Below the pieces are notes generated by a model, which did no database searches, had not been told where the DNA came from, and worked only from the letters and a program-made list of their open reading frames with translations. The position numbers and the translations under genes were made by a program. Positions 6,177 to 22,382 of a stretch of 64,000 nucleotides of DNA are shown here, piece by piece. Source of the DNA: an uncultured delta proteobacterium (lineage in GTDB: Bacteria; Myxococcota_A; Polyangia; Fen-1088); NCBI GenBank assembly GCA_963755125.1, contig CAVWIP010000012.1, forward strand, positions 150,602 through 214,601. The letters run 5' to 3'. The stretch's first letter is position 1, and each line of letters starts with the position of its first letter.

Positions 6177-7685
6177 TCAGCGGCTGCGTTCGAGCACCAC
6201 GATGGCATGCCGGTCGAACTTCGGTACGAAACCAGCCCGCCGGGCTTGAGAGTCGACCGACGAGCCCTTGCCGGCCAGCACGTGCGAAAAGAGGCGATTG
6301 GACAGGAGCTCGGGCTCGTACTTGACCTGGGGCAGATCGCGGCCGAACCACACGGTGGCGCCGGTGTAGAAGTGCCAATCCAACAACAGGCCGGTCGCGT
6401 TCTTCTGGCGCGCCACCCAAGCCTGACCGTCGAGGCGAGCGTGCGAAATGTCGAAGTCGAATTGTCGCAAATGGCGAGCGCCGTCCACCACCACGGCCAG
6501 CATGCCGGCGACGATGACCAGTTGCTTTGCGCGAGTGAGCCATCGCCGCAAGCGGCTTGGCGCTGCGCCACCGTTGCTGGGCGGCGCGCGCGAGAAGAGC
6601 CAATGCCCGAGCACGGTTCCCGCCGCAATCAACAGGAACGGCCAGAAGAGCAGCGCGAAGCGTTCTTCCTTGTGCGCCTGCGTGCTGATGTAGCCGAGCA
6701 GACCCGCAGCCGAAAGCACGAACGGCCAGGTGGCGCGCAAACCGCAGATGGCCGGCAAGACCAGGATGGCCAGGCCGATAGGCAAACGCGCCCAGATGCC
6801 TGCCAGGTACCAAGTCGCGGGTTCGGTGCCGAACTCCGCGGCCCGGCCCTGGATGATGTTGAACTTGATGAAGGCGAGAAAAGATCCGAAGAAATGTCCC
6901 CAGGTCAACCGATCGACGATCCCGAACAGGGCCACCGGGACCAGGGCCGTCCCCGCAAGGATGGCGAGATCCCGCCACCGGTGCCGGGCGCCGAGCCAGA
7001 TCGCGGGCAGCAAAACCAGCGCGCCGTTGACGATGCGCAGACAGACCGCGAGGGACAGCAGCGTGCCGATGACGACGGCGCGCCCCTTTCCCTCTCGCGG
7101 GTCGAGTTCGGTCTGCTCGGCGACCAGGGCAAACGCGACGATGAGGACGATCATCGAAGGCAGCTCGGTGAGCGGCTCGACCGAATACAGGGCCAGCAGG
7201 GGAAAGGTCGCCATGAGAAAAGCGGCGACGAGTCCACCTTGCCAGCCCGCGGGTGGCGCGTCGCCAACGAACCCCATGGGCGCCGGCTGATCGAACACCA
7301 GATGTCCGCACGCACAGCACGGATGACGAGGGCGAAGCTGCCGCGCGCACGAAGCCCCCGCCCGCCACGCCGCCCACACCATGAACATCGACAGCAAGCC
7401 CCAACTCAAGCGAATCATCTCGCCGATCGTGCTGCCCCGCAGGCCCAGGCTCCTTCCCAGCGCCATCCACGCCCCGTGGTAACCGGGCAGTACCCAGGAG
7501 CGCAGACCGTCGGTCCACTCCCAGGTCTTCATGCCCTCACCCGTCACGCGGGTCCAGGCTGGCTCCAGGCTCTGAAAGTAGGCGTCTGGATACAGTACCG
7601 GTCCCAGGCGCGCGGCCACGATGCGGCCCACGAAGCCCACGGCGAGCACGATGCCGAGAATGAAGCGCACGCGTCGTGCGGTCAT
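6177..7685 (-). CDS. GT22-like (PIG-B/Alg9-type, Dol-P-Man/polyprenyl-P-sugar dependent) membrane mannosyltransferase family protein
   Basis: The N-terminal conserved block YPDAYFQSLEPAW...WEW..LRS...PGYH resembles the GT22 'PDE-FQ-LE' signature. The protein is polytopic. The ATG at 7683-7685 overlaps the upstream stop as ATGA, which indicates translational coupling. Confidence 0.6.
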   Translation of the reverse strand: MTARRVRFILGIVLAVGFVGRIVAARLGPVLYPDAYFQSLEPAWTRVTGEGMKTWEWTDGLRSWVLPGYHGAWMALGRSLGLRGSTIGEMIRLSWGLLSMFMVWAAWRAGASCARQLRPRHPCCACGHLVFDQPAPMGFVGDAPPAGWQGGLVAAFLMATFPLLALYSVEPLTELPSMIVLIVAFALVAEQTELDPREGKGRAVVIGTLLSLAVCLRIVNGALVLLPAIWLGARHRWRDLAILAGTALVPVALFGIVDRLTWGHFFGSFLAFIKFNIIQGRAAEFGTEPATWYLAGIWARLPIGLAILVLPAICGLRATWPFVLSAAGLLGYISTQAHKEERFALLFWPFLLIAAGTVLGHWLFSRAPPSNGGAAPSRLRRWLTRAKQLVIVAGMLAVVVDGARHLRQFDFDISHARLDGQAWVARQKNATGLLLDWHFYTGATVWFGRDLPQVKYEPELLSNRLFSHVLAGKGSSVDSQARRAGFVPKFDRHAIVVLERSR

Positions 7686-8383
7686 CGTCCCCACACTTCG
7701 ATTTCAAAAATACGCACAATCTGACCGGGGCGGTTGGGCACGAATCTCACGCGCACACCACGAGCGCCCGAACAGGCCAGCGCGTGCACGGCCACCGGCG
7801 CGTGATTGTCGGTCACCACCACCGGCGGCGGAACTGGCCGCGCCTGTAAGCACCACAGGCTGTATTCTTGCGAGGTGAAATCCGCTGACTCGACTGTTCC
7901 GGCGTGACGGATCACCACACTTCTGACTTGTCGCTTGCCCGACCAGAGCAGTTCCACCCAGGGATGCCTGTCGCCGGGGTCGGATGCCCATTTCTCCACC
8001 AGGGTGGGATTCGTGCGGCCGTCGACAAGATAGCCCGGGTTGTGCTGGGAAAAGGGGTCGCGAAAGAAGGAGCTGACCCGCACGGTCGTTCCCAGACGGT
8101 ACGCCACGAGATTGTGCTCCCCCGCAGGATGGGCTTCCAGGGTTGGAAACGCGACCACGGCGACCGCCTGCCTGCGCACGAACAGAAAGAAGCCCGTGCT
8201 CCAGGCAATGACCAAGACTCCCGCCAGCGCGAAAGCAACGGTCCGTCGCCGGGCCCACACCCGACCGACGACGGACACTACGGGAGCGGTCCTTTGGGCC
8301 ACCGCGGAGATGACGAGCGTCAGACGCCGCAGGCGAATCGCCCAGGAAGGGGAATACCAAGTCGCGAACCGCGGGAGCAGCAC
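7682..8383 (-). CDS. Single-pass membrane protein with a C-terminal discoidin (F5/8 type C)-like carbohydrate-binding domain
   Basis: TM segment VAFALAGVLVIAWSTGFFLFV. The C-terminus ...HPWVELLWSGKRQVRSVVIRHAG...VRVRFVPNRPGQIVRIFEIEVWGR is an FA58C-like ending. The start is uncertain: GTG at 8383 or an internal GTG. Confidence 0.5.
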   Translation of the reverse strand: MLLPRFATWYSPSWAIRLRRLTLVISAVAQRTAPVVSVVGRVWARRRTVAFALAGVLVIAWSTGFFLFVRRQAVAVVAFPTLEAHPAGEHNLVAYRLGTTVRVSSFFRDPFSQHNPGYLVDGRTNPTLVEKWASDPGDRHPWVELLWSGKRQVRSVVIRHAGTVESADFTSQEYSLWCLQARPVPPPVVVTDNHAPVAVHALACSGARGVRVRFVPNRPGQIVRIFEIEVWGR

Positions 8384-8439
8384 AGTGAACTGCTAGCCTA
8401 TCACTTCCGTTGGCGCGGCGCTGCGCGAGCCGCCAGGAC

Positions 8440-9180
8440 CTATTTCAGCAACGCCATCGTCACCACATGCGCATCAAGGTCACACCATAGCAGGGTGAGC
8501 GAGCGCGGTGCCATTCGCGCGGCCAATACAGGTGCCAAAGCAATGTCCAGCGCGCGCCAGGCTTCGGCCAAACCTGATGGCGCGTCCATCTCGTCGCCCA
8601 CCACGATGTCGCGCGTGTCGTGACGAAGCCCGAGGCCCATGGCCTTGAGCACTGACTCTTTGGCGCTCCAGATGCGCGCGACTGTCCGGTCGGCGTCGCG
8701 GCCACCGGTCTTGCTCACGCGAGAGGCTTCGCTCTCGCTGAAAAACTGTCGCACCAGAGCCGGATCGCGAGGCTCAACGGTTTCGAGATCGGCGCCGATG
8801 CTGGCCCCGGGCGGCAGCGCGATTGCCGCCAGGCCCCAGTCCCCACGATGCGAGATTGACAATGATAGGGGCAGGCGGCTCCCTTGCAGATCGACGTACG
8901 GCATTCCCGACTCGTCATTGAGGACGCTGAACTGGCAACGCCAATCGTGATTCGAGCTGGGCTTTCCCATTAACCCCGCCACGAGGCCGTTGCCTTCGGC
9001 TGCCAGTTCGCCCAGCAACCGCTTGGCCGCCCAGCGGCCGAGCAGCCATTTCCGCCGGCGCGGCAACAGCGCCAACCCGGCGAGGATCGCTTCCTCGCGC
9101 GGGCTGAGCAGGCCCGGCGGCGCCTGACCCGCTGCCAGCGCGGGGTGCTCGCCGGCGTGGGCCAGGACGTGACGGAACAT
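8440..9180 (-). CDS. Sfp-type 4'-phosphopantetheinyl transferase
   Basis: Motifs SLSISHRGDWGLAAIA and WSAKESVLKAMG (PPTase W/KEA motif). The ATG at 9178-9180 lies 3 nt downstream of the PKS stop. Confidence 0.85.
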   Translation of the reverse strand: MFRHVLAHAGEHPALAAGQAPPGLLSPREEAILAGLALLPRRRKWLLGRWAAKRLLGELAAEGNGLVAGLMGKPSSNHDWRCQFSVLNDESGMPYVDLQGSRLPLSLSISHRGDWGLAAIALPPGASIGADLETVEPRDPALVRQFFSESEASRVSKTGGRDADRTVARIWSAKESVLKAMGLGLRHDTRDIVVGDEMDAPSGLAEAWRALDIALAPVLAARMAPRSLTLLWCDLDAHVVTMALLK

Positions 9181-9183
9181 CGG

Positions 9184-12100
9184 TCACCCGATGACGCCGC
9201 GGAAGCGGCCCAAAGCCTCGTCGGGCAGCCCGCCCGGGATGCGCGAGGTGCGGTAGCCCTGCACGGTCAGGTAGACCTTGCCCTCGTCGTCGCGCACCCG
9301 CGCGTCGAACGACAGCGCGTCCTCGGACGCATGCGGTTGCAGCTCGGCCACCATCGTCTTGCCGTCGGGCGCCGGATCGAACACGGTCACTCGCTCCACC
9401 ACCGAGGGCAGCCCCATCTGTCCGGTCTGGCCGATCTCCCACACGCCCGCGGTCTGGAAGCACAGCTCGACCATGCGCGGCCCGACCATGCTGGTGCTGT
9501 TGGGGTTGGTGGTGTCGGCAGGCAGAGGTGTCCTCATGGTCCCCACCACCTTCCCGCTCGATAGCCGGTTGACCATCTCCAACACCCGGTAGGCCGGACC
9601 GTGGAAGTACACCCGGTAGATGTCGTCGTGGCCGATGCCGCCCACCGGGCCAGCGCCATCGACGGCCGTGCGCGCGCTCGGTCCCGTCCCCTGTTCCAGC
9701 ACCACCACGCCGGCGAAGTGCAGTTTCTCCTCGGGCTCGCGCCCCACCACCACCTGCACCGACGACAGGCTCGTATGAACCCGCACCCGCCCATCCGCGC
9801 CCAGCACCGGCCGCGCGCGCACGATCACCGAACGCGGCTCGTGGCGGTAGTACTTCATGGGCGCCAGGAAGCGCACGTTTTCCAGCGCCGCTACCCGATG
9901 CTGCGGGGCCAGCAACCAGGCCGCCTCGGCGAATGTCTCCAAACCCATCACGCCCGGCAGAACCGGAATGCCGTCGATGGCGTGATCGTGAAGGAACGGC
10001 TCCACCTTGGGGTCGAGACGAATCTCGGCCGTCATGCCCTGGTGCAGATCGAAGGTGACGTTGTCAAAGGGCAAAGGCAACGCCCTTTCGCGGGCGCGGG
10101 CCAGCAGGCTGCCCTCGGGATCGATGCCGCCGTCCTTGTCAAAGGGCTCCATCAGGATGCCCAGCTTGTGCCCCACCACCGCTTCGCCCGAGAAGCCCGC
10201 CTGCAGCGCATGGCGGATGACCGGCAGGCCCTCGTCCGGCGACAGCATGTCGATACCCGCGCGCTTCATGATCTCGGGGATGCTTCCGCGCGTGGCCATG
10301 CCGATTCCACCCCAGGCCGTCCAGTCGAGCGCGATGCCCAGCGAGCCCGGACGCGACGCCGCCCACCAGGAGAGCGTCTTGCACATGAAGTCGTTGCCCG
10401 CGCTGTAGTCGGCCTGACCGGCGTTGCCAAATCGGCCGGCGACCGACGAGAATCCGACAATCGCCTTGACGTCCATGTCGCGTGTCGCGGCCAGCAGATT
10501 GAAAAGCCCGTCGGCCTTCACCCGGAAGACCAGGTCGAATTCCTCCACCGGCTTGCGGTCGAGCGAGCGGCTGCGCTCGAGCCCTGCGGCGTGCAGGATG
10601 ACGTCGATGCGTCCGCTCTCGGCGCGGATGTTGTCCACCACCGCCTTGACCGCAGCGCCGTCCAGCACGTCGACCTGACGGTAGAAGGCACGGCCGCCTG
10701 CCTGCTCCACCCCGCGCAGGGCTTCCAGGATGCCGGCCTGCCGTTCCAGATCGAAGAGCTTCTCCTCGACCTGCGCGGGCGTGGCGCGGCCCTTCTCGGC
10801 CTTGATGCGCTCGAAGACCTCGCGCTTGGCAGCCTCGCGATCCTTGATCACGGTTTCGAGCAGAGCGTGTTCGCTCTCGGGCGGCATGGCGCGCGCATCC
10901 AGCAGGTAGAACGTGCCGCGCGACGCAGCCGCCAGATCGCGCACGATGGCCACGGTGATGGCCCCAGCCCCGCCGGTGACGGCGAACACCGTGTTCTCGT
11001 CCAACGTGAGCGGCGGCTTGGCGTCGGCCGGCACGGCTTGCATGACCTCCAGGCCAACCGTCACGCGCACGCCCCCCGCGTAGCCGATCTCCACCGCGCC
11101 CGGATCCTGCTCGGTCTCGTCGAGCAACGCGCGCGCGATGGTCTCGGCCGAGGCGCCGTCCTCGAAATCGACCGCCTTGGCCAGCAGATCGGGCCGCTCG
11201 CGCCGCAGCGTCTTGGTGAAGCCGGTGACCGCGCCCCCCACGGAGTTGCTGGCGCCGCTCGCACCATAGCCGTGCTGGCCGCCCATGCGGGTGGCGGCTA
11301 TGACGAAGCTGCCCGGGGTGCCCAGGCCCTCGTACAGGCCGCGGGCCGCCCCGTGCAAGAGCAAGACGCGGTCGCGGTAAAGCTTGCGAAACTGGACCAG
11401 GTCGAGGTCCGCCAGCGAAGCCGAGCGGTCGAGAGCAGGCAGAAAGTAGAGGCCCACGGGCTTGCCCGGCTTTGCCCATTTTTGCAAGGCGGCCTCGATC
11501 TCGGCCCGTTCCGGTCGCGCATCGATGCGCAGCACCTGCACTCCCCGACTTTCCAACTCATCGCAGAGGAGCTTGCCCGCACCTTCGCTGTCAGCGACCA
11601 CCACCACGCGACTGCCTCTCTCCAGTCGCACGCCGGTCTTCTTGCACGAATCCAGTGGAGGCCGCAGGGTCACCACCGGACGGCGCAGCAGCCCACTCAC
11701 AAAGGGGCTCTGCCCCACCGCCGCGTCGGCTGCGGCAGTCACGGCGGTCGGCGCTGCCACGGCAGGCGCAGGTGCTGTCGGCGCGGCCGGTGCCGCTGCC
11801 GGCAGGTACTTGTTCACGAACCCGATGACGTGGCGAAGGGTCGGGTAGTCCCGCAGCTTCACATCATCCTGGCGCGGAATACTGAATGCCTCCCGCACCA
11901 GCGCGAACACCTCCGCCTGCTTGACCGTGTCGATCCCCAAGTCAGCCTCGAGATCCAGGTCCAGCTCCAGCATGTCGCGCGGATAGCCCGTCTTGCCGGC
12001 CACCAGTTCCAGAACCTTTTCTTCGATCGGATTCCCCGAACCAACTGCACTAGCCGTGGTCGTGGTCGTGGTCGTAGACGTGGTCGTGGTCGTGGCCGGT

Positions 12101-15100
12101 TTCGCAGCCACAACTGCCGGCGCTGCCGCCACCAGATCCGGCCGATTCGTCTCCACGAACCCGATCACGTGACGGAGAGTCGGATAGTCACGCAGCTTGA
12201 CGTTGTCCTGCCTCGGGATATTGAACGTCTCCCTCACCAACGCAAACACCTCTGCCTGCTTGACCGTGTCGATCCCCAAGTCAGCCTCGAGATCCAGGTC
12301 CAGCTCCAGCATGTCGCGCGGATAGCCCGTCTTCTCTGCCACCACTCCCAGTACCTTCTCCACCACGACACTTGTCGTGGCCGTGGTCGTGGTCGTGGCC
12401 GTGGCCGTGGCCGTGGTCGGAGCCGTGGCCGTGGCCGTGGTCGTAGTCGTGGCCGGTTTCGCATCCACCATCGGCACCGCCGTCACCAGGTCCGGCCGAT
12501 TCGTTTCCACGAACCCGATGACATGACGGAGCGTCGGGTAGTCACGCAGCTTGAGCGTATCCTGGCGCGGAATATTGAATGTCTCCCGCACCAGCGCAAA
12601 CACCTCCGCCTGCTTGACCGTGTCGATGCCCAGGTCAGCTTCGAGATCCAGGTCCATTTCCAGCATGTCGCGCGGATACCCGGTCTTTTCTGCCACCAAT
12701 CCCAGCACCTTCTCCGCCACGACACTTGCCGTGGCCGTGGTCGTGGCCGTGGCCGTGGCCGCCGCCGCCCCTGCCCCAACCAGATCCGGCCGGTTCTCCT
12801 TCACGAACCCCACCACATGCCGGAGGGTCGGGTAGTCACGCAGCTTGAGCGTGTCCTGCCGCGGAATATTGAATGTCTCGCGCACCAGCGCGAACACCTC
12901 CGCCTGCTTGACCGTGTCGATGCCCAGGTCAGCTTCGAGATCCAGATCGGGATCCAGCATGTCGCGCGGATAGCCGGTCTTGTCGCTGACCAGTTTGAGC
13001 ACCGACTCCATGGCGGCGTCCGCTCCCGACGCTGCCGCGACAGTCGTGACCGCCGAGGACGCGGCCGACGGTGCGGTCGCCACCGGCGCAGGCGCCGGCT
13101 GAGCCGCAGGAGTCGCGATCACGGCCGGCGCGAGCGGCACTCGCGGCGCAGGCATCGCTGGCATCGGCGCCCCATCGCTCAGGCTTGCGCTTGGGCCCGT
13201 GCCCATGGTCCAGCTCGACTGAGCCGGCTCGCGCGCCGGCTGGCCAATGTCCTTGATGCGCAGGGTGCGCTTCTCGACCTCCAGGACCGGCGCCGGGTAC
13301 CCGGAGATCTCGGACAGCCAGCGTTGGTAGGCAGCCCGATCGGCCACCCGCTCTTCCAGACCATCGATGCGACGGAGCACGGTCATCGCGATCTGCGAAC
13401 CGAAGCCGGCGGCCAGTCGCAGGGCGTAGCGCACGGGATAGTGCCCGCCCTTCGACAGATTGAGCGTGCCCAGCTCGGGATCGGGCTCGCGGTAGTTGGG
13501 CACCGGCGGAACCACCTGCTTCTCCAAAATCTTGACCGCCACCGCGTCCTCCACGCCCACACCCATGGGATGACCGGTGAACCCCTTGGTGTTGCACACC
13601 ACCAGATCGTTGGCGCTGGCGCCAAAGGTCTTGCGTAGGGCGAATATCTCGGCCGAGGCGCTGCCTCCGCGCGCTGGCGTGTAGGTCTCGTGCGAGATGA
13701 ATACCAGCTCGCGCGCCATGGCGTGCCGATCGATGCCGTGACGTTGCTCCACGCCCGACACCAGCCGCTCCATCACGCCCTCGATGTGATCCACATCCAG
13801 GCGCGTCCCGTGGAAGGCGCTGTTGGCGAATGTGCTGCCCAGCACCTCACACAGGCCGCGCATACCGCGCTCGCGCAGCGAATCTTCCGACTCCACCACC
13901 AGGCCGCAAGCGCCCATGCCCAGCAACATGCCGTTGCGCCGGCGATCGAAGGGCAGCGCCGCCTTTTCCAGCACATCCTCGGTGGTGGCCGCGCCAGTGG
14001 CCAGGAAGCCGGCACCCATCCATTCCAGCAGGTTGTCCGAGGTGACGTCGTCGGCGCCGATGATGAGCACGCGGCGGCAGCGGCCGGCCCGGATCCAGTC
14101 CTCGGCCATGCCCACCGCCATGGTGGTCGAGGCGCAAGCCGCGTTGACTTGCGTGTTGGGACCGCGGATGCCGAGCAGTTCGGCAAACTGCGCGTGACCC
14201 ATGGAAAGAATGCGGAAGAGGAAACGGCGATCGAACTCGTAGCTGCTGCGGCCGGTTCGCTGCGCGAAGAAGCGCGTGACCTCGTCGACCAAGTTGTCGT
14301 AGCCGGGAAAAGCCGAGGCGAAGATCACGCCGGTCTCATCGGCCATCGCCACCGGAAGCCGCCAGCGGTCGGGCAAAAAGCTGCCCGTGGTGGTGCGGCG
14401 ATAGTGGCGCACCAGGGGAATGCCCGCGTCGCGCAGAGCCTCGATGCCCGCGGCGATGGCCAGCGCGGTGGTGACGTCCCAGGCTTCCACGCGCTCGCGC
14501 GGTACGCCGAATTCCTCGACGATATCGAAGACGCCGCGGCGGCCAGCCAGGCGAATGACCTCGTCGACCGATCGGATGGGATCCAGGCTGGGCTCGCCCA
14601 CCTCGCGCTTGACCAGGCGGACCACGTTCTTTTCCACCATGCGGGCGCGGAAGACGTGCGGCACCGGATCGATGAAGGAGTCGCCGCGCAGAATGCGTTC
14701 CACGTTGCCGTCATCGAAGACGTGTTGCTTCTGCCCAGGCAGGCCCAGGGCCGCGCCTGACACGACGATCGAGCCCGAGCGGGCCTCCGGCAAGGCGGGC
14801 GGGCCGGCGCGACGACCGCCGTACATCGCCATGCCCTCGTCGAGAAAACGCGCAAACAGTCTTCCCAGCCCGTCGTAGTTGGGCTGGCCTGCGGAAGTGC
14901 GAATAGGACTCTCGCTCATGATCTGGGTTGCTCCGTGCGAAGAATTCGGGAGGGAAACTGTGGGTGTGGCTGTTGCAGTGGCGGGCGGCGTCCCTGCAAG
15001 GGCAGCCACAAGATCCTCGGGGCGCGGGATGCCCGCGGCGTAGAAGCCACACATGGCATCGTGGAACGAACGGACGCCGCCGCGCTTGGGATGGTTAGTG

Positions 15101-17817
15101 GAGAAGCAGATGACGTCGTCTTTGTCCTCGAGAATGCTGTCGGCCAGGGCCATGAGCGCGCGCTTGGGCCCCACCTCGACGAAGATGCGCGCCCCCTCCC
15201 GGTAGCAGGTCTCGACGCCCTTGACGAACTGGACCGAGGACGCCATCTGGTCGGCCAGGCGCCGCCGGATGGTGTCCATGTCGTGGGTCGGGTAGAGATC
15301 CCCGTCGATGTTTCCCACCAGGGGAATGCGCGGGAACGCGATCTGCATCTCGCAGATGGTCCGGTAAAGCGCGTCGGATGCCGGTGCCACCACCTTGCTG
15401 TGGAAGGCGTGGGACACCGGGATGAGTTGCGCCGTCATGCCCAGCTTGTTGAAATAGTCGACCGCGCGGTCGACCGCATCGCTGGCGCCCGCAATCACGG
15501 TCTGCTTGCGGCTGTTGATGTTGGCCGGTGTGAGGTAGCCGCCGATCTCGGGCAGCCGGCTCACGATCTCGTCGGTGGGGCCGGCCACCGAGGCCATCTT
15601 GCCCTTGTCGCCGATGGACACCGAGGCCATGGCGCGCGCGCGTGCGCTCACCGCCACCAGTGCCTCGGGGAAGGTGACCATGCCCGCGCCCACAGCCGCG
15701 GCCCATTCGCCCAAACTGTGCCCCATCACGATGTCGGGCTTGACCCCGTGTTTGTCGAGCAGGCGCATGATGGCGATGTCGCTGGCCACCATGGCTGGCT
15801 GGCAGATGGTGGTGTCCTTCAGTGCCTCCTCGGCGGCTTGCACGGCAGCCGCATCAGCCTCGTTCTTGTAAACGTATGCGGTCAGCGGCTGACCCAGGAT
15901 GGGACCCATCACGCGGTCGGCCTCGGCAAAAGTTTCGCGCACGATCGGATCCGGAACATCGGCCAGCATGTTCACGTACTGTGAGCCCTGTCCCGGGAAG
16001 AGGAAGGCCACCTTGCCCGCTCGACCACACCGGAAGTGGATGCCCTTGCTCTGCAGCAGACGCCACTTCTTGGGCTCGTCCTTTTCAAGAGCTGCCAGAG
16101 CGGTCTCACCCTTCTTGACCAGATCGGCTGCATCCTCGAAGGCAATCACCAGACGTGCGGGCGCGGCCAGAAAGTCCGGTCCTGGCGGCTGGCGGTCGGG
16201 GGTCTGGCCGGCCTTGGCCCTTTCCAGCGCCTGGGTGAGGGCTGTGCGCACCGCCACCGCGTCGGCCCCGGACACGGCCAGCATGTTGCCCAGCATGGAC
16301 GGCCGGGTGTCCCGGGCCAGCGCGACCGAGGACGAGCCACCCGCGAAAGAAGCTGGCACCTGCACCAGCGGCTCACGCCGAGCCAACATGCCGGGCACAT
16401 ACTCCTCGACCACCACGTGGAAATTGGTGCCGCCAAAGCCGAAGGCCGACAAGCCACAGCGCCGCGGACCGAACGACGGCTTCTCCCAGGGCTGGGCCTT
16501 GGTGTTCACGAACAGAGGCAGCTTGTCCCAGGGAATGTTGGGATTCGGCTCTTTGAAGTTGATCGAGGGCGGCAGAATCTTGTGGTGACAGGCCAGCACG
16601 ACCTTGAGCAGGCTGGCGGCGCCAGCCGCGCTCTTGAGGTGGCCGATCTGCGACTTGATCGAGCCGAGCGCAATCCGATGCTTGATGGGCGAGCCTTCGG
16701 AGAGCAGCTTGGCCACGGTTTCCATCTCGGCCACGTCCCCGGCCCGTGTCGAGGTGCCGTGGCCTTCCAGGAGTGTCATGGTCGCGGGGTCCAGTCCGGC
16801 GCGCTCCCAGGCGCGACGCAAGGCCAGAATCTGCCCGATGGGATTGGGCGCGGTGATGCCCTTGCCCTTGCCGTCGCTGGAGCCGCCCACGCCGCGGACC
16901 ACCGCGTAGATGCGATCGCCCGCCTTCTCCGCGTCCTGCAGACGCTTGCACACGAAGAAGGCACCGCCCTCGCCCATGATGAAACCCTTGGCGTGCTTGT
17001 CATAGGGCCGCGATCCGTCGGGCGAGAGTGCGCCGATCTTGCAGAACTTGATGAAGGTGGTGGCGCCCATGTTCCGATCCATGGCGCCGGTGACCACCAC
17101 GTCATAGTGGTGATCGACCAGACCGTCGACCGCGGATTGCAAAGCTGCCAGCGAGGAAGCGCAGGCGGCGTCGGTGGTGAAATTCGGTCCGCGCAGGTTG
17201 AGCACAGCGGCCACGCGGCCGGAGGTGATGTTGGTCAACTCGCCGGGCATGGTGTCTTCGGTGGTGTCCGGAAAACGCCGGTTCACCGACTCCCGCAACT
17301 GCGCAACAAAGGCCGCGCGCTCGGCCTGGGGCAGCGACTGGAAGATCTGGGTGTCGGAGATGGCGTGCACGTACTCCGGCATGGAGAGGCGCAAGCAGGT
17401 CAGGTAGTGCAGCTCGCCGCCCATGGCATTGCCCAGGATCACGCCGGTCGATTCGGTGTCGAGCGGCCGGTCGGGATGGCCCGCGTCGCGTAGCGCCTCG
17501 GAAGCGCAGAGCAGAGCCCATTTCTGGCCGTCATCCATCGCGGCCGATACCGTGGGCGGAATGCGATACTTGGTGGGCTCGAAGGAAACGCCGCGCACCC
17601 AGCCGCCGATCTTTGAATAGGTCTTGCCCGGCGCCTTGGGATCAGCATCGTAGTAGTCAGCCTGGTTCCAGCGATCCAGGGTGACCTCGCTCACCGAGTC
17701 CCGGCCGGTCACGACGTTCTGCCAGAAGGCCTTGGCATCGAGCGCGTCGGGCAGTATGGCCCCCACGCCGATGATGGCGACGGCTCTCTCGGCCGGATCG
17801 CGTGTCGAACGACTCAT
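9184..17817 (-). CDS. PfaA-like iterative type I PKS / secondary-lipid synthase (2877 aa). The domain order is KS - AT - KS - 4 tandem ACP - KR - DH.
   Basis: KS1 has DAACASSL, EGHGTSTRAGD and KSQIGH (about nt 17790-16420). AT has GQGSQ, GHSLGE and HAFHS (about nt 16000-15050; GHSLGE near 15705-15722). KS2 has NAACASTT (near 14140), FHGT and NTKGFTGH (about nt 15000-13620). There are four near-identical ACPs, each with LEADLGIDTVKQAEVFALVRE, separated by Ala/Thr/Pro linkers (nt 13030-11825). KR has the Rossmann motif TGGAGAITVA (near 10965) and YSAGN. PKS-type DH has HDHAIDGIPVLPG (near 9985). The RBS is ggaggaag ahead of ATG 17815-17817. Confidence 0.95.
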   Translation of the reverse strand: MSRSTRDPAERAVAIIGVGAILPDALDAKAFWQNVVTGRDSVSEVTLDRWNQADYYDADPKAPGKTYSKIGGWVRGVSFEPTKYRIPPTVSAAMDDGQKWALLCASEALRDAGHPDRPLDTESTGVILGNAMGGELHYLTCLRLSMPEYVHAISDTQIFQSLPQAERAAFVAQLRESVNRRFPDTTEDTMPGELTNITSGRVAAVLNLRGPNFTTDAACASSLAALQSAVDGLVDHHYDVVVTGAMDRNMGATTFIKFCKIGALSPDGSRPYDKHAKGFIMGEGGAFFVCKRLQDAEKAGDRIYAVVRGVGGSSDGKGKGITAPNPIGQILALRRAWERAGLDPATMTLLEGHGTSTRAGDVAEMETVAKLLSEGSPIKHRIALGSIKSQIGHLKSAAGAASLLKVVLACHHKILPPSINFKEPNPNIPWDKLPLFVNTKAQPWEKPSFGPRRCGLSAFGFGGTNFHVVVEEYVPGMLARREPLVQVPASFAGGSSSVALARDTRPSMLGNMLAVSGADAVAVRTALTQALERAKAGQTPDRQPPGPDFLAAPARLVIAFEDAADLVKKGETALAALEKDEPKKWRLLQSKGIHFRCGRAGKVAFLFPGQGSQYVNMLADVPDPIVRETFAEADRVMGPILGQPLTAYVYKNEADAAAVQAAEEALKDTTICQPAMVASDIAIMRLLDKHGVKPDIVMGHSLGEWAAAVGAGMVTFPEALVAVSARARAMASVSIGDKGKMASVAGPTDEIVSRLPEIGGYLTPANINSRKQTVIAGASDAVDRAVDYFNKLGMTAQLIPVSHAFHSKVVAPASDALYRTICEMQIAFPRIPLVGNIDGDLYPTHDMDTIRRRLADQMASSVQFVKGVETCYREGARIFVEVGPKRALMALADSILEDKDDVICFSTNHPKRGGVRSFHDAMCGFYAAGIPRPEDLVAALAGTPPATATATPTVSLPNSSHGATQIMSESPIRTSAGQPNYDGLGRLFARFLDEGMAMYGGRRAGPPALPEARSGSIVVSGAALGLPGQKQHVFDDGNVERILRGDSFIDPVPHVFRARMVEKNVVRLVKREVGEPSLDPIRSVDEVIRLAGRRGVFDIVEEFGVPRERVEAWDVTTALAIAAGIEALRDAGIPLVRHYRRTTTGSFLPDRWRLPVAMADETGVIFASAFPGYDNLVDEVTRFFAQRTGRSSYEFDRRFLFRILSMGHAQFAELLGIRGPNTQVNAACASTTMAVGMAEDWIRAGRCRRVLIIGADDVTSDNLLEWMGAGFLATGAATTEDVLEKAALPFDRRRNGMLLGMGACGLVVESEDSLRERGMRGLCEVLGSTFANSAFHGTRLDVDHIEGVMERLVSGVEQRHGIDRHAMARELVFISHETYTPARGGSASAEIFALRKTFGASANDLVVCNTKGFTGHPMGVGVEDAVAVKILEKQVVPPVPNYREPDPELGTLNLSKGGHYPVRYALRLAAGFGSQIAMTVLRRIDGLEERVADRAAYQRWLSEISGYPAPVLEVEKRTLRIKDIGQPAREPAQSSWTMGTGPSASLSDGAPMPAMPAPRVPLAPAVIATPAAQPAPAPVATAPSAASSAVTTVAAASGADAAMESVLKLVSDKTGYPRDMLDPDLDLEADLGIDTVKQAEVFALVRETFNIPRQDTLKLRDYPTLRHVVGFVKENRPDLVGAGAAAATATATTTATASVVAEKVLGLVAEKTGYPRDMLEMDLDLEADLGIDTVKQAEVFALVRETFNIPRQDTLKLRDYPTLRHVIGFVETNRPDLVTAVPMVDAKPATTTTTATATAPTTATATATTTTTATTSVVVEKVLGVVAEKTGYPRDMLELDLDLEADLGIDTVKQAEVFALVRETFNIPRQDNVKLRDYPTLRHVIGFVETNRPDLVAAAPAVVAAKPATTTTTSTTTTTTTASAVGSGNPIEEKVLELVAGKTGYPRDMLELDLDLEADLGIDTVKQAEVFALVREAFSIPRQDDVKLRDYPTLRHVIGFVNKYLPAAAPAAPTAPAPAVAAPTAVTAAADAAVGQSPFVSGLLRRPVVTLRPPLDSCKKTGVRLERGSRVVVVADSEGAGKLLCDELESRGVQVLRIDARPERAEIEAALQKWAKPGKPVGLYFLPALDRSASLADLDLVQFRKLYRDRVLLLHGAARGLYEGLGTPGSFVIAATRMGGQHGYGASGASNSVGGAVTGFTKTLRRERPDLLAKAVDFEDGASAETIARALLDETEQDPGAVEIGYAGGVRVTVGLEVMQAVPADAKPPLTLDENTVFAVTGGAGAITVAIVRDLAAASRGTFYLLDARAMPPESEHALLETVIKDREAAKREVFERIKAEKGRATPAQVEEKLFDLERQAGILEALRGVEQAGGRAFYRQVDVLDGAAVKAVVDNIRAESGRIDVILHAAGLERSRSLDRKPVEEFDLVFRVKADGLFNLLAATRDMDVKAIVGFSSVAGRFGNAGQADYSAGNDFMCKTLSWWAASRPGSLGIALDWTAWGGIGMATRGSIPEIMKRAGIDMLSPDEGLPVIRHALQAGFSGEAVVGHKLGILMEPFDKDGGIDPEGSLLARARERALPLPFDNVTFDLHQGMTAEIRLDPKVEPFLHDHAIDGIPVLPGVMGLETFAEAAWLLAPQHRVAALENVRFLAPMKYYRHEPRSVIVRARPVLGADGRVRVHTSLSSVQVVVGREPEEKLHFAGVVVLEQGTGPSARTAVDGAGPVGGIGHDDIYRVYFHGPAYRVLEMVNRLSSGKVVGTMRTPLPADTTNPNSTSMVGPRMVELCFQTAGVWEIGQTGQMGLPSVVERVTVFDPAPDGKTMVAELQPHASEDALSFDARVRDDEGKVYLTVQGYRTSRIPGGLPDEALGRFRGVIG
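11825..13030. repeat. Tandem near-identical coding repeats of about 294-354 bp (four ACP domains plus linkers) inside the PKS gene
   Basis: An 84-bp block (cgcctgcttgaccgtgtcgatccccaagtcagcctcgagatccaggtccagctccagcatgtcgcgcggatagcccgtctt) is identical at about 11907-11990 and 12247-12330, and near-identical twice more up to about 13000. The alternative-frame ORFs 11859..12113, 12234..12464 and 12483..12779 repeat the same peptide. Confidence 0.8.
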
Positions 17818-17925
17818 TTCAACTTCCTCCCAGATATCGAAAACGGAAAACCGGGCGCCCGCCGGCTCGCCCCGGCGTCCGAATCAAGCGAATGGTTGCC
17901 TGCCTCTTTTCTCTCTCTTGCTCGG

Positions 17926-19587
17926 CTACGCGCGAGCCGCGTCTTGCTCCACCAAGGCCTTGGCCACGACGTCCATATCGGCCATCAGGCCCTTCGCGCA
18001 AGCCGTGATGGCGCTGGCCCGGAGGGCGCGCTCGAAGTCGGCAATGCCTGCATCATCCACCGCATCCATACCGCGGACCAGACGAACCGCCAGACCCAGC
18101 ACGTCAAGCGCCGCCTCGCGCGCGCAGATGCGCGACATGGCCTTGACGGCCGAAGGTGCGAAGAACGGCTGGTACTTGGGCGCGCTCCGGCCCGCAGCAT
18201 AGCGGGCGAAGTTGGCCGCGATCTCTGCCCGTGTCATCAACTCGCCCAGTTGGAATAGCACGTGCTGATTGCGGGTCAGACGGCCGACACGACAGCGCTC
18301 AGCCGTCTCCTGAACAACGTTTACCGCCAAGGCCGCCGCATCAGCCCCCACGTTGGCATCCTCGCGGTGCAGTGCTTCGAGTGAAGCAGCGATCTTCTTG
18401 TAGTACTGCCCGTGGTCCTGCAGGTGCAGGCGCCAGCGATCGCGCGATACCGTCCACTGCATGATCTCGCTGGTGCCTTCGTAGATCGTGGTGATGCGCA
18501 CATCGCGCCGGATCTTCTCGACCTCGTATTCCCTGGTGTAGCCGTAGCCGCCGTGCGCCTGGATGGCGGCGTCGGCCGCGGCGTTACCCGCCTCGGTGGC
18601 AAAGAGCTTCACGATCGCGCCCTCGGTCTGCAACTCCGGCTCGCCCTGGTCCAGCCGATGCGCCGTCTCTTCGATGAGAGCTCGCGCCGCCTCCAGCCTG
18701 ACCACATGGGGAACGATCAACTTGTCCATGTAGCCCTGCTTTTCAGCCAGAGGCGAGCCGGCCTGCACGCGCTCACGCGAGTAGCGGATGGCCCTGAGCA
18801 TGGCCGCCACGCCGCCGCCCAGGCCAAAGGCTGCCACCATGAGGCGGGTGAAACCGAACACCGACTGGGCGTGAACCAATCCCTTGCCCTCCACGCCGCC
18901 CAGCAGGTTCTGCTTGGGAACGTACACGTCCTCGAAGCTGACCGGCGAGGTATTGGACGAGCGGATGCCCAGCTTGTTCTCGTGCTTGCCAGGAACCAGG
19001 CCCGGGGTTCCCTGCTCCACCGCGAAGAAGGTGGGCCCGTCGGGCGCCATGGCCAGCACCGTGTATAGCTGCGCGTAGCCGCCGTTGGAGATGAACTGCT
19101 TGGCGCCGTCGATCTTGTAGCCCTTGATTTCGTCGTTCTCCATCACCCGCTCGGCGCGCGTGCGAATGGCAGACAACTCGCTACCCGCCAGGGGCTCGGT
19201 CACGGCGTAGGCGACAATCAAGCCTTCGTCGGCAATTCGCCGCAGCCAGTAGGTCCGCTGCTCCTCGGTCGCGCCAACCACGATGGGGTCGGTTCCCAGA
19301 AAGATGGCCAGGAAGGCGGTCGCCACGCCCAGATCCAGCTTGGCCATCTCCTCCGAGACCCGATAGACGTCGTAGGCGTTGCCGCCCAGGCCGCCCAGTT
19401 CCTCGGGGATGAACAAGAGGTGCAGGCCGATTTCAGGCCCCAGCAACTCACGGATCAGGTCGAGCGGAAAGAGATCCTTCTCATCTAGGTCCAGCCTGAC
19501 CTTGAGCGGCAGCTTCTGCTTGCCAAACGAGGTCAGCGTGTCGATCAGGGTCTGGAGTGAATCTTTGTCGAGACCTGGGTTCTTCAT
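17926..19587 (-). CDS. Acyl-CoA dehydrogenase family flavoprotein with an extra C-terminal domain of about 170 aa. It is the first gene of the PKS operon.
   Basis: ACAD motifs: ...GSELSAIRTRAE..., YKIDGAKQFISNG, TTIYEGTSEIMQ and the catalytic region YGYTREYEVEKIRRDVRI. The start was trimmed to ATG 19585-19587 (MKNPGLDKDS) with the RBS aggaagg. Confidence 0.85.
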   Translation of the reverse strand: MKNPGLDKDSLQTLIDTLTSFGKQKLPLKVRLDLDEKDLFPLDLIRELLGPEIGLHLLFIPEELGGLGGNAYDVYRVSEEMAKLDLGVATAFLAIFLGTDPIVVGATEEQRTYWLRRIADEGLIVAYAVTEPLAGSELSAIRTRAERVMENDEIKGYKIDGAKQFISNGGYAQLYTVLAMAPDGPTFFAVEQGTPGLVPGKHENKLGIRSSNTSPVSFEDVYVPKQNLLGGVEGKGLVHAQSVFGFTRLMVAAFGLGGGVAAMLRAIRYSRERVQAGSPLAEKQGYMDKLIVPHVVRLEAARALIEETAHRLDQGEPELQTEGAIVKLFATEAGNAAADAAIQAHGGYGYTREYEVEKIRRDVRITTIYEGTSEIMQWTVSRDRWRLHLQDHGQYYKKIAASLEALHREDANVGADAAALAVNVVQETAERCRVGRLTRNQHVLFQLGELMTRAEIAANFARYAAGRSAPKYQPFFAPSAVKAMSRICAREAALDVLGLAVRLVRGMDAVDDAGIADFERALRASAITACAKGLMADMDVVAKALVEQDAARA

Positions 19588-19699
19588 CAGTCTTGTGCCT
19601 TCCTGCGGCCAAGTGAATCGGTGGGAAAAGGGGGATACCCCGGCTGAAAGGCTCCGATGCTGGCACAAGCCGGGCCAAAATCAAAACCGGACGTCAGAG

Positions 19700-19800
19700 C
19701 AGGTGTTGCGCACCTCAAGATGCACATATCACACTGTAATCATTTGATTATTTCTTTAACCATCGTGACGCAAAGATGTGCAAAACCGCTGCCATGTGCG
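19700..19800. promoter_or_regulatory. AT-rich island with direct repeats AAGATGYRCA, upstream of the ACAD-PKS operon. It is a putative promoter/operator.
   Basis: tcaagatgcacatatcacactgtaatcatttgattatttctttaaccatcgtgacgcaaagatgtgcaaaacc is far below the local GC content. The repeat aagatgcaca / aagatgtgca is spaced about 51 bp apart. Confidence 0.3.
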
Positions 19801-19986
19801 TCGTCTCCTACACGCCCAGGTTGCCTGAAATGGCCCAGGTGCGACTCCCGACACGCACCCCTGCGGCCTTGGGTACGCACCAATACTGCACAGGCTCCTC
19901 TGCGCCCTCGACTCTCCCCTCTGTGTTCTCAGCCGACGCCGGCTAGCCCGCTGAACTCGCTCCCACCGGCCGCGACCCCGCTTCCA

Positions 19987-20388
19987 TTACTTCCAGCGGC
20001 TTTCACCACCTTCGGACTTCTTCTTGGCTGCTTCGGCAGCCTTCTCCTTGTCCTTCTTCGCCTGGGCCGCCCTGGCCTCTGCCTGCTTCTTCTTGTCGTT
20101 CTGCTGGATCCTCTTCAGGGCAGCCGCGGCGTCCTTCTCCTGTTGCTTGCGGCGCTGCTCCTCGCAGCCCGCCGGTTCACAGTCGCCTTCGCAGGCACAT
20201 TTCAACTTCTTCCCCTTGTTGCAATGGCACTGGTCCTGGGCGTCGCGATAGCAGCCGCAATCGTTGAGAGGCGTTGCAGCCGGCGGAGGCTCCGCTTCCG
20301 CCTTGGCGGCCTTCGATTTGGCAAAACCCAACCCTGGCGCCCAGACCAGAAGGCCGAATACTGCGATGATCGATGGCGTGATCCGCAT
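19987..20388 (-). CDS. Small secreted Cys-rich, Lys-rich protein (134 aa)
   Basis: Signal peptide MRITPSIIAVFGLLVWAPGLGFA. Cys cluster CGCYRDAQDQCHCNKGKKLKCACEGDCEPAGC, followed by a Lys/Ala/Glu-rich tail. The start was trimmed to ATG 20386-20388. Confidence 0.5.
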   Translation of the reverse strand: MRITPSIIAVFGLLVWAPGLGFAKSKAAKAEAEPPPAATPLNDCGCYRDAQDQCHCNKGKKLKCACEGDCEPAGCEEQRRKQQEKDAAAALKRIQQNDKKKQAEARAAQAKKDKEKAAEAAKKKSEGGESRWK

Positions 20389-20498
20389 GGCATTCTCCTC
20401 TTGCCAGGCATTATCACGTGAGCCACGAGCCGCGCAACCGTGTTGCGGCCTTGCGGCCGGCCCGCATCCATGATTGAAACACTCGACGGAGAAAGCCG

Positions 20499-20696
20499 AT
20501 GGGTACAAGCCTGACGACCCGTGACAGAACCGAAGCGCGAAAGAAGGGGCTGCTGGCGGTCGGAGCCTGGGGAGGCGCGGGACTGCTTGTCCTCACGCAT
20601 TGGCCACTGTGGTTCCCCTTGGCCGCTGCTGGGGGCGCAGGATACCTGACCTACAAATGGTTCATGTTCCGCGCGAAACGCGGCATGCGGTTCTAG
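20499..20696 (+). CDS. Small hydrophobic protein (65 aa), hypothetical
   Basis: A ggagaaag RBS lies 6 nt before the ATG. One or two predicted TM helices. No homology was recognised. Confidence 0.3.
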   Translation: MGTSLTTRDRTEARKKGLLAVGAWGGAGLLVLTHWPLWFPLAAAGGAGYLTYKWFMFRAKRGMRF

Positions 20697-20700
20697 GAAC

Positions 20701-21336
20701 CTACGGCTCGATATAAAGCGGCGGTCCGGAAGGTCTCTGGGACTCGCCAGACGGGCCTCCGGGCTGGCTGCGCCCGACCTGGTGGAAAGTCAAGGGCAAG
20801 TCCACATGCACCGCATCTCCTTCGAATCGCGGAAACCGCATGTTCTGGACGGAGATCCGCACGCAGCGCTCGGCATCAGGGGGCGCCCCGTTGACGCGGA
20901 TAAGGCTGGGGCGTCCCGACGGATCAGCCTCGAACGACACCGCCACCATCGGGTTCTCGGCAGACGGCGAGAAGCAGGATGCCAGCGTCGCCATCGTGCC
21001 TTGAATCGCTACGTTCAGCGTGTCGCGGCTGAGTCCGTTCGGATTTCCGTTGAGCGTGCCCGCGTTTCCTGAGGCGGCGGGGTTGGCGGCGGCGGCCGGA
21101 GCTGGATCAGCTTCCACGAGCTCAGCCGACGGAGAAAAGCCCTCAAAACCTCGCAGCCTGCGCGGTCCCAAACGTTCGGGAGCCGCCTCCGGTGACGTTG
21201 GTATTGCCGGAAGGGGGGGCAATTCCCTCTTCTTGAGGCCCAAAGCCTCGCATCCCGCGCCCGACCATGCCAGCACCAGCATCAGGCCGAGCGTGACCGG
21301 CCCTGCTGGCAAGCTGTGCGACGACTTCGTCCGCAT
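20701..21336 (-). CDS. Lipoprotein, hypothetical
   Basis: Signal peptide with lipobox MRTKSSHSLPAGPVTLGLMLVLAWSGAGC, then a Pro/Ala-rich linker. It is divergent from mak. Confidence 0.5.
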   Translation of the reverse strand: MRTKSSHSLPAGPVTLGLMLVLAWSGAGCEALGLKKRELPPLPAIPTSPEAAPERLGPRRLRGFEGFSPSAELVEADPAPAAAANPAASGNAGTLNGNPNGLSRDTLNVAIQGTMATLASCFSPSAENPMVAVSFEADPSGRPSLIRVNGAPPDAERCVRISVQNMRFPRFEGDAVHVDLPLTFHQVGRSQPGGPSGESQRPSGPPLYIEP

Positions 21337-21455
21337 TCTCTCATTGTATCGGAAGGTCATCGACGTCGCTTGAACGGGAGCGACTCCTTTGCTGCATGCC
21401 GCCATATCGTAGGTGCCGAGCCGGAACCGTCGAAGCGGTGTAGTGTCATTCGCCG

Positions 21456-22382
21456 ATGCGTATCGGAGTTGACCTGGGCGGAAGCAAGACTGAAAGCGTT
21501 GCCATCGACGACGCCGGAATCGAACGCGCACGATTGCGCGTACCCACGCCCAGCCACAGCTACGACGAGATCGTCGCATCCATCGTGCGTCTGGTGCGCG
21601 ACACCGAGGCCCGCGTCGGGCAGACGGGCACGGTCGGCATAGGAATCCCCGGCGCCGTGTCTCCCGCCACCGGGCTGGTCAAGAATGCCAACACGGTCGT
21701 GCTCATCGGGCGCACACTTGATCGCGACCTGGCGCACGCCCTGGACCGGCCTGTGCGGGTGGCCAACGACGCCAACTGCTTCGCGCTCTCGGAAGCCTCG
21801 GACGGGGCGGGTGCCGGCGCCAGGGTCGTCTTCGGCGTCATCGTGGGCACGGGAACGGGCGGCGGCGTGGTGGTGGATGGGAAGCTGCTGACCGGGCCAC
21901 ACGCCATCGCAGGCGAATGGGGGCACAACCCCTTGCCCTGGCCTCACGACGATGAGCGCCCGGGCCCACCTTGCTACTGCGGAAAGAACGGCTGCATCGA
22001 AACCTTCCTGGCTGGGCCCAGCCTGGCCCGCGACCATCAGCTTCACACCGGTGAAGCGCGGGACGCGGGCGACATCGCCCGGCGCGCTGAAGCCGGCGAC
22101 GCGGTTGCCGTGGCAACCATGACTCGCTATGAGGATCGCATGGCGCGGGGGCTGGCGTCGGTGATCAACCTTCTCGATCCCGATGTCATCGTCTTGGGCG
22201 GCGGGGTCTCGAACATCGCGCGCCTGTATCGTGAGGTTCCGCTGCGGTTGGGCCAGTACGTATTCTCGGACACGGTGAGCACGCCCGTCGTCCCAGCCCG
22301 CCACGGCGATTCCAGCGGGGTGCGCGGGGCCGCCTGGCTGTGGCCGCTTCCCCCTAGCGCATCTGCCGCCGGACCTGGATGA
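21456..22382 (+). CDS. mak: ROK-family sugar kinase, fructokinase/mannokinase (Mak-like)
   Basis: The protein is near-colinear with E. coli Mak. Matching blocks: MRIGVDLGGSKTE, TVGIGIPGAVSPATGLVKNANT, VANDANCFALSEA, GEWGHNPLPWP, zinc motif CYCGKNGCIETF, LDPDVIVLGGG and HGDSSGVRGAAWLW. Confidence 0.85.
   Translation: MRIGVDLGGSKTESVAIDDAGIERARLRVPTPSHSYDEIVASIVRLVRDTEARVGQTGTVGIGIPGAVSPATGLVKNANTVVLIGRTLDRDLAHALDRPVRVANDANCFALSEASDGAGAGARVVFGVIVGTGTGGGVVVDGKLLTGPHAIAGEWGHNPLPWPHDDERPGPPCYCGKNGCIETFLAGPSLARDHQLHTGEARDAGDIARRAEAGDAVAVATMTRYEDRMARGLASVINLLDPDVIVLGGGVSNIARLYREVPLRLGQYVFSDTVSTPVVPARHGDSSGVRGAAWLWPLPPSASAAGPG

Follow-up and report, generated by a model that had tools for sequence, protein, structure and literature searches.

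Whether a single PfaA-like polypeptide can carry two catalytically competent ketosynthase (KS) domains, and whether such a polypeptide belongs to any described family, is the question raised by one gene in a 64,000-nucleotide stretch of DNA from an uncultured delta proteobacterium of the Polyangia (GCA_963755125.1, contig CAVWIP010000012.1, positions 150,602 to 214,601). This whole stretch is referred to below as the window, and its own numbering is used throughout. The gene (9184..17817, minus strand) had been read in an initial annotation as KS, acyltransferase (AT), a second KS, four acyl carrier proteins (ACPs), ketoreductase (KR) and dehydratase (DH), an arrangement for which no described family could be named. 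In the present analysis the gene was assigned to the Type R secondary lipid synthases and its second KS (KS2) was judged to be a catalytic enzyme, and both conclusions are very likely.

Clusters resembling the pfa genes were sorted into Types A to T by Shulse and Allen (2011; PLoS One 6:e20146; PMC3098273). Type R was described there as a single pfaA homolog with the layout KS-MAT-CLF-ACP(3-6)-KR (CLF, chain-length factor) followed by a gene for a phosphopantetheinyl transferase (PPTase). Its listed hosts are Koribacter, Solibacter, Elusimicrobium and Roseiflexus; the two genes of Koribacter flank one for acetyl-CoA carboxylase, and no product was assigned (PMC3098273). The window has this domain order, a downstream PPTase and no pfaB, pfaC or pfaD. 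Its synthase is collinear from end to end with an orthologue from the metagenome-assembled genome (MAG) of a Roseiflexus sp., which gives an identical series of Pfam matches, at 53% identity over residues 7-1543 and 47% over residues 1700-2862, and grouping with the Type R KS domains was supported by proxy through this orthologue rather than with the reference sequences of PMC3098273 itself. The view that the architecture lies outside any described family was thus not upheld. Since a two-KS layout was catalogued as Type R in 2011, it is not a new architecture and its novelty is low.

Relatives were sought with two KS2 signature peptides in a collection of one genome per species, and at least 587 species genomes carried the signature, so Type R is very widespread. 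The 80 best loci among these at least 587 relatives come from Chloroflexota, Acidobacteriota, Actinomycetota and Myxococcota, with one verrucomicrobial MAG, and in all of them the order KS1-AT-KS2-ACP(2-6)-KR-DH was found where the contig allows. Because this order recurs in 80 loci that were assembled independently and belong to several phyla, the layout is not a product of chance or assembly. Many short 'stand-alone' KS2 proteins in the databases (500-880 aa) proved to be contig-end or frameshift fragments of this one collinear gene. For a relative at 95% identity (L001, 7077..15475) and for Kibdelosporangium lantanae (L002, 5928..15116) the synthase was called as three to four genes owing to assembly frameshifts, a case that illustrates how counting architectures from gene calls risks creating false 'stand-alone KS2' proteins. 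Later characterization of Type R was not found in the searchable literature, outside which most subscription journals lie; there, only PMC3098273 describes the layout. In a 2026 paper the secondary lipids for which products are known still number no more than a handful.

The synthase gene is read through 2877 codons without a break in a single frame, and domain calling with Pfam and NCBIfam returned the order KS-AT-KS-ACPx4-KR-DH within this one open reading frame (ORF), as first annotated. The NCBIfam model for PfaA (TIGR02813) scored 1052.7 bits, just above its cutoff of 1010.1, its match being split into three stretches because KS2 interrupts it. The exact protein is held by NCBI as MGA7743429.1 under the title 'SDR family NAD(P)-dependent oxidoreductase [Polyangia bacterium]'. 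Over KS2 the closest genome among the matches listed was a 'delta proteobacterium' MAG at 97% identity. The HAFH motif in the AT is a malonyl-specific signature in polyketide synthases (PKSs) and predicts malonyl specificity here. Judged by their motifs, all domains of the synthase look active.

KS2 was examined as an isolated domain. When residues 1014-1519 were scanned alone, the FabF model TIGR03150 matched with an E-value of 2e-40 over model positions 20-406 of 407, and Pfam ketoacyl-synt with an E-value of 3e-15. An AlphaFold2 model of KS2 built from 33 homologues had a predicted local distance difference test score (pLDDT) of 89.8 and a predicted template modelling score (pTM) of 0.92, and Foldseek superposed it on complete FabF structures with target-normalized template modelling (TM) scores of 0.85-0.90. 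A region that matches both the whole FabF model and its fold is a full KS domain, and a KS-AT linker or docking domain was ruled out by the Pfam, NCBIfam and PDB searches together with AlphaFold2 and Foldseek. The claim that a second complete KS sits between the AT and the ACPs was in this way confirmed by domain callers and by structure prediction.

Catalytic residues were mapped by aligning KS2 with solved FabF enzymes and with the E. coli FabF sequence taken from NC_000913.3. Three motifs had been cited for KS2, NAACASTT (Cys1228), FHGT (His1336) and NTKGFTGHPMG (Lys1411 and His1416), and all are present. One of them had been misassigned: FHGT, taken for the motif of a catalytic His, aligns with the non-catalytic 'YHMT' of FabF, and the true motif is 'ISHETYTP' with His1376. 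The region around it reads SHETYTPARGGSASAE and is invariant across phyla; FabF has HGTSTPAGD. Cys, His, Lys, His and the gating Phe of FabF thus all have counterparts in KS2 (Table 1), and the five are invariant in 49/49 full-length family members as well as in 33 diverse database proteins. With its thiolase fold, Cys-His-His triad, conserved Lys and gating Phe, KS2 has the features of an elongating KAS I/II-type enzyme. At the same five sites KS2 reads CHKHF, whereas real PfaC CLFs read EAKHS and GHKDG. The earlier statement that KS2 is not a Cys-less chain-length factor therefore holds, with Cys1228 kept in every full-length member and E or G at that site in the PfaC CLFs.

KS1 has the matching set (Cys219, His353, Lys388, His393 and a Phe), likewise invariant in 47 family KS1 domains, so that two KS domains with intact catalytic sets do occur in one PfaA-like polypeptide, as had been proposed. 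Mean pairwise identity within the family is 65% for KS2 and 63% for KS1, and both domains are, judging from these alignments, under purifying selection. The two are only about 21% identical to each other, which makes the pair ancient rather than the result of a recent duplication; an origin of KS2 as a recent KS1 duplicate was ruled out by this figure and by the separate clades that the two domains form in the tree described below. Among solved structures KS1 comes closest to KS domains of type I and trans-AT PKSs (the PfaC didomain 6riw matched with an E-value of 4.5e-61), and KS1 is 44% identical to the Persicobacter PfaA KS. By sequence, profile and fold KS2 is nearest to discrete FabF enzymes and next to KS-alpha subunits of type II PKSs; its top 60 PDB matches contained no type I KS and no CLF chain. 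Identity of KS2 to FabF is about 25%, and to PfaC KS and CLF 14-22%. Its TIGR03150 score of 138.6 bits is far under the cutoff of 493.75, so KS2 is FabF-like but not a FabF orthologue. It also exceeds FabF in length by about 90 residues, most of which belong to an insertion near the N-terminus (residues about 1040-1110) with invariant Arg, Lys and Gly positions.

A neighbour-joining tree (Poisson distances, 447 columns, 200 bootstraps) was calculated from the KS domains with pfa-like clusters of a Persicobacter plasmid (PfaA1/PfaA2, PfaC) and a Streptomyces plasmid and with E. coli FabF as references. KS1 joined the Persicobacter PfaA KS in 200/200 replicates, KS2 was monophyletic in 200/200 and sister to E. 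coli FabF in 198/200, and PfaC-KS and PfaC-CLF each formed a clade of their own. A KS phylogeny had been called for at the outset with FabF and PfaC-KS among the candidate neighbours of KS2; the first placement was obtained and the second was not. The separation of KS2 from PfaA-KS, PfaC-KS and PfaC-CLF is firm within these alignments, and its sister relation to FabF is indicative only. The published 'CLF' domain of Type R is, by sequence and predicted fold, a competent FabF-like KS, and its annotation should change. A fully equipped KS in place of a CLF changes how the Type R enzyme should be modelled and mutated.

The carrier domains differ from other ACPs at the site of their prosthetic group. 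All four ACPs of the window read DLGIDTVKQAEV, with LGIDTV four times, and when they are aligned without gaps to E. coli AcpP DLGADSLDTVEL the Thr falls exactly on Ser36, the phosphopantetheine site, an unexpected feature. The motif LG[IV]DTV was found in 236/236 array ACP motifs of the family (window and loci L003-L082), while LGIDSI stands in all PfaA-type ACPs of four further pfa-like clusters (Streptomyces, Persicobacter, Nostoc and Azospirillum). As Ser is one nucleotide from Thr yet was never seen, Thr appears to be selected. E. coli ACP with S36T 'cannot be post-translationally modified by 4'-PP' (PMC3340395). Phosphopantetheinylation of threonine was not found in the searchable literature, which is incomplete and so gives weak evidence of absence. 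Modification of the ACPs on Thr, if it occurs, would account for the close linkage of a PPTase gene dedicated to them; it could explain why the clusters always bring their own enzyme and might fail in heterologous hosts, and would be of general interest for carrier-protein biochemistry.

Partner genes were surveyed by clustering the ORFs of 82 loci and by targeted tblastn. A gene of the acyl-CoA dehydrogenase (ACAD) family lies directly upstream of the synthase on the same strand in 62 of the 71 loci for which 2.5 kb or more of sequence precedes the synthase. The encoded ACADs are closely related orthologues that share 53-56% identity between phyla along their full length, and IYEGTSEI is kept in them. 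Nine loci lack the ACAD, and in 7/7 of those that extend far enough downstream a PfaD-family enoyl reductase (ER) is encoded after the PPTase (TIGR02814, 650 bits with a cutoff of 449). The checkable loci thus comprise 62 with ACAD only, seven with PfaD only, none with both and none with neither. The PfaD loci (L034, L036, L040, L046, L055, L062 and L070; for example L062:15779-17419, minus strand) are of an Anaerolineae type, in which one to three extra Thr-type ACPs (two in L062) lie between KS1 and AT to give KS1-ACPn-AT-KS2-ACPn-KR-DH.

Before the ACAD, and on its strand, 15-17 loci, mostly Acidobacteriota, encode the electron transfer flavoprotein (ETF) subunits EtfB and EtfA and a 690-aa 4Fe-4S/CCG-domain oxidoreductase; L049, L051, L053, L056, L059, L064 and L068 are among them (examples are L056:1165-3237, L051:3392-4183 and L059:4158-5144). 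By its gene content this set of 4Fe-4S/CCG protein, EtfB, EtfA and ACAD is a complete predicted electron path between acyl chain and quinone pool within a biosynthetic operon. For the ACAD and the cluster Etf subunits the closest NCBIfam models include those of AcrC, a reductive acryloyl-CoA reductase, and of the Etf subunits that go with it, all below cutoffs. Genes for a carboxyltransferase and a biotin carboxyl carrier protein, parts of an acyl-CoA carboxylase, come after the synthase in some 20-38 loci, in line with the published Koribacter cluster. A wax ester synthase/diacylglycerol acyltransferase (WS/DGAT) gene is present in five loci, and the PPTase is downstream in 43/61 loci with enough flank. 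Canonical PfaC and PfaD partners are seen in the comparator clusters L084 and L085. In L084 (Streptomyces sp. 2P-4 plasmid, 6977..24473) pieces of PfaA, PfaC-like KS-CLF-FabAx2 and PfaD are directly followed by two 570-600-aa ACAD genes and a FAD oxidoreductase; the two ACADs share no more than about 25% identity with that of Type R.

The window locus encodes KS, AT, ACP, KR and DH on one polypeptide together with a dedicated PPTase and a dedicated ACAD, and a conserved Type R three-gene unit of ACAD, megasynthase and PPTase is the best overall explanation, one that we consider fairly probable. The synthase would iterate on malonyl units, as suggested by its single malonyl-type AT, its tandem near-identical ACPs, the PfaA scaffold and the carboxylase parts of its relatives, which would feed malonyl flux. 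The PPTase would activate the ACPs, apparently on threonine. In canonical polyunsaturated fatty acid (PUFA) synthases the PfaA KS primes the chain and runs the early cycles and the PfaC KS the last ones (PMC12895367). By analogy KS1 and KS2 may split the elongation cycles by chain length, a division of labour to which we give a little less than an even chance. The megasynthase lacks an ER and the ACAD alternates strictly with the PfaD ER, which suggests that the upstream ACAD might supply enoyl reduction, fed in many relatives by EtfAB and the Fe-S/CCG oxidoreductase; this assignment, too, falls somewhat short of evenly balanced. Lack of a FabA-type DH/isomerase makes a cis-polyunsaturated product unlikely, and our best guess is a long acyl chain that would be largely saturated, trans-unsaturated or hydroxylated. 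The fullest version of the scheme, a self-contained menaquinone/ETF-linked machine in which Thr-phosphopantetheinylated carriers, a reversed ACAD and two unrelated, active KS domains splitting the cycles would yield a long-chain lipid, is rather doubtful; if true, such a lipid would be widespread in soil and sludge bacteria of the Chloroflexota, Acidobacteriota, Actinomycetota and Myxococcota. The ACAD with ETF and Fe-S oxidoreductase (or PfaD), the carboxylase parts and the PPTase make up a concrete, testable pathway.

Other accounts of KS2 were weighed with these data. The middle domain was labelled CLF by Shulse and Allen (PMC3098273), and KS2 could accordingly pair with KS1 in a pseudo-heterodimer that sets chain length, or prime by decarboxylation of malonyl-ACP, with no condensation in either case. 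Such KS/CLF pairs are used within one system by PUFA synthases and type II PKSs, and KS2 matches type II KS-alpha chains of KS/CLF complexes (6smo_B, 1tqy_A, 9s5h_B). It nevertheless lacks the loss of the active-site Cys that defines a CLF and the further losses seen in PfaC, its tree position and PDB matches lead to FabF and not to CLFs, and a whole AT domain separates it from KS1, so that the two are not in tandem; we consider a CLF function improbable. Two dissimilar KS domains in series would also suit a two-module, non-iterative line, with KS1-AT loading or making the first extension and KS2-ACPn-KR-DH acting as an AT-less second module towards a short product, and the Anaerolineae variant KS1-ACP2-AT-KS2-ACP2-KR-DH looks like one carrier set per KS. 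The main form, window included, has no carrier between the two KS domains; its two to six near-identical ACPs, PfaA-type scaffold and carboxylase parts are hallmarks of an iterative high-flux lipid synthase, and the WS/DGAT genes of some clusters point to long acyl chains, which leaves the two-module line a slim chance. Its many short database entries might suggest that KS2 has no function and stems from a chimeric assembly, a decayed pseudogene or a recent internal duplication; these being pieces of the same collinear gene, and given an intact ORF in the window, the layout in at least 80 loci, the distance between KS1 and KS2 and strong purifying selection on KS2, this can practically be dismissed.

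The role of the ACAD is less secure. It may be a tailoring 2,3-dehydrogenase or a catabolic neighbour, in which case the synthase would make a conjugated polyene or use the housekeeping FabI/FabK. ACADs usually oxidize, passing electrons through ETF to quinone, a chain that the cluster EtfAB and Fe-S/CCG proteins resemble, and KS-AT-ACP-KR-DH without an ER is the logic of enediyne and polyene PKSs. The L084 cluster, moreover, has PfaD and two ACADs side by side, so that ACADs can be tailoring enzymes in clusters of this kind. Against such a role stand the strict either/or with PfaD, the orthology of the ACADs across phyla with their fixed place and strand directly upstream, and the inclusion of reductive AcrC among the closest models, though below cutoffs; on balance a non-reductive ACAD appears unlikely but deserves to be kept in mind. 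The normally oxidative direction of ACADs and the L084 cluster also count against the preferred scheme of ACAD, megasynthase and PPTase as one biosynthetic unit, and several further points do so. All seven PfaD loci are of the Anaerolineae type, and the exclusivity of ACAD and PfaD may therefore reflect one evolutionary replacement event. No ETF, carboxylase or release enzyme lies nearby in the window, and no experiment on any Type R cluster was found in the searchable literature. The KS tree has few references and long branches, and conserved catalytic residues show selection for chemistry, not which chemistry or cycle.

Coordinates of the synthase, its domains and catalytic residues and the two dedicated partner genes are collected in Table 1.

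Table 1. Features of the Type R-like locus in window coordinates; residues are numbered on the 2877-aa synthase.
Feature	Residues	Position	Strand	Description and basis
PfaA-like megasynthase gene, assigned to Type R		9184..17817	-	2877 aa, KS1-AT-KS2-ACPx4-KR-DH; single ORF; Pfam and NCBIfam
KS1	11-475	16393..17787	-	type I PKS/PfaA-type; Pfam ketoacyl-synt N and C, KAsynt_C_assoc
AT	605-900	15118..16005	-	Pfam Acyl_transf_1, E 1.6e-38; GHSLG active site, HAFH motif
KS2	about 1014-1485	13363..14778	-	FabF-like ketosynthase; TIGR03150, Pfam, AlphaFold2
KS2 equivalent of E. coli FabF Cys163	Cys1228	14134-14136	-	codon
KS2 equivalent of E. coli FabF His303	His1376	13690-13692	-	codon
KS2 equivalent of E. 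coli FabF Lys335	Lys1411	13585-13587	-	codon
KS2 equivalent of E. coli FabF His340	His1416	13570-13572	-	codon
KS2 equivalent of E. coli FabF Phe400	Phe1472	13402-13404	-	codon; gating Phe
Four tandem ACPs		11809..13032	-	Pfam PP-binding, four stretches; tblastn self-hits
ACP Thr sites	Thr1635, 1733, 1851, 1964	12913-12915, 12619-12621, 12265-12267, 11926-11928	-	codons
KR catalytic subdomain	2278-2503	10309..10986	-	Pfam KR, E 2.2e-25, adh_short; YSAGN at residue 2471
PKS-type DH	2593-2863	9229..10041	-	Pfam PKS_DH_N and PS-DH; HxxxGxxxxP at residue 2612
Sfp-type 4'-phosphopantetheinyl transferase gene		8440..9180	-	246 aa; Pfam ACPS, E 1.4e-16; start 3 nt past synthase stop
ACAD family gene		17926..19668	-	580 aa from TTG; Pfam Acyl-CoA_dh N, M and C; NCBIfam and PDB matches

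Aligned to Sfp, the window PPTase keeps ISH.G, IG.D.E and WS.KE..K, the standard Mg2+ and catalytic motifs. Type R PPTases were described as having a P1a motif x(G/D)xP, a PKS-like P1b' motif hShxH and no P0 motif (PMC3098273); 'SGMPY' and 'LSISH' of the window PPTase, conserved among 31 cluster PPTases, were matched by eye to that text only. The ACAD gene lies 108 nt upstream of the synthase on the same strand, and its true start is likely Met28 at 19587, giving 553 aa. The protein is VLCAD-like in length, with a C-terminal extension of about 170 aa, and its catalytic Glu is conserved in IYEGTSEI. Structures and NCBIfam models nearest to it are of a general kind (MCAD, Bcd, VLCAD, AcrC) and leave either direction of catalysis possible. 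No further KS, AT, KR or DH and no PfaD was found by tblastn in the window, nor was any FabA-like, ETF, carboxylase or WS/DGAT gene found there. A promoter and terminator scan of 7500-21000 gave counts no better than shuffles and so carried no information on operon boundaries.

The other neighbours in the window are housekeeping or unrelated genes, among them RNase Y, very large TPR proteins, an FHA/TonB_C protein and Fpg. The TPR-repeat proteins form a run at 24220..45811 on the minus strand (3461, 326, 629, 1178 and 605 aa), within which the FHA/TonB_C protein is encoded at 35855..38065; the 3461-aa TPR ORF ends directly against the start of the RNase Y gene (22660..24219). On the plus strand an FGE-sulfatase/MopE-motif ORF (2411..3403) and a DUF2330 ORF (3007..4611) have, as listed, about 400 nt in common, and the true start of the latter is probably further downstream. 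The window locus itself keeps a moderate interest for the size of its family, the revision of the 'CLF' domain, the ACAD/ETF-or-PfaD pattern and the ACP threonine.

Set beside known systems, the synthase shares with canonical PfaA (Shewanella/Moritella type; Persicobacter was the comparator) the order of KS1, AT, tandem ACPs, KR and PKS-type DH, and differs by the extra FabF-like KS between AT and ACPs. The remaining components of a canonical PUFA synthase, PfaB, PfaC (KS-CLF-FabA-type DHx2) and PfaD, were not found in the 64-kb window, and the ACPs of such a synthase have a serine in LGIDS(I/L) where the window has LGIDTV four times. The PfaC KS-CLF didomain (PDB 6RIW) likewise places two KS-fold domains on one polypeptide of a PUFA-type system and is a precedent for a second KS taking later cycles (PMC12895367); in PfaC, however, KS and CLF are adjacent and the CLF Cys is replaced by E or G, and KS2 groups with neither domain. 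FabF (KAS II), the nearest relative of KS2, shares its whole-domain fold and all five catalytic and gating residues, but it is a shorter enzyme of about one quarter identity, whereas KS2 is embedded in a megasynthase. Chains of ACAD, EtfAB and membrane Fe-S proteins are known from mycobacterial FadE/EtfAB/EtfD and from clostridial Bcd or acryloyl-CoA reductase with Etf. Family loci resemble them in encoding ACAD, EtfB, EtfA and a 4Fe-4S/CCG protein in one block, which here joins a megasynthase operon and alternates with PfaD; the window has the ACAD only. The closest likeness is to Type R as published, which has a KS-like domain between the AT and an array of three to six ACPs, a KR, a PPTase directly downstream, no pfaB, pfaC or pfaD, hosts among Chloroflexi and Acidobacteria and sometimes a carboxylase gene in between (PMC3098273). 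That paper makes no mention of the upstream ACAD/ETF genes, the PfaD variant, the C-terminal DH or the ACP threonine, and the Polyangia (Myxococcota), to which the window host belongs, are absent from its list of Type R lineages. The middle domain, named CLF there, has the full Cys-His-His-Lys-Phe set here.

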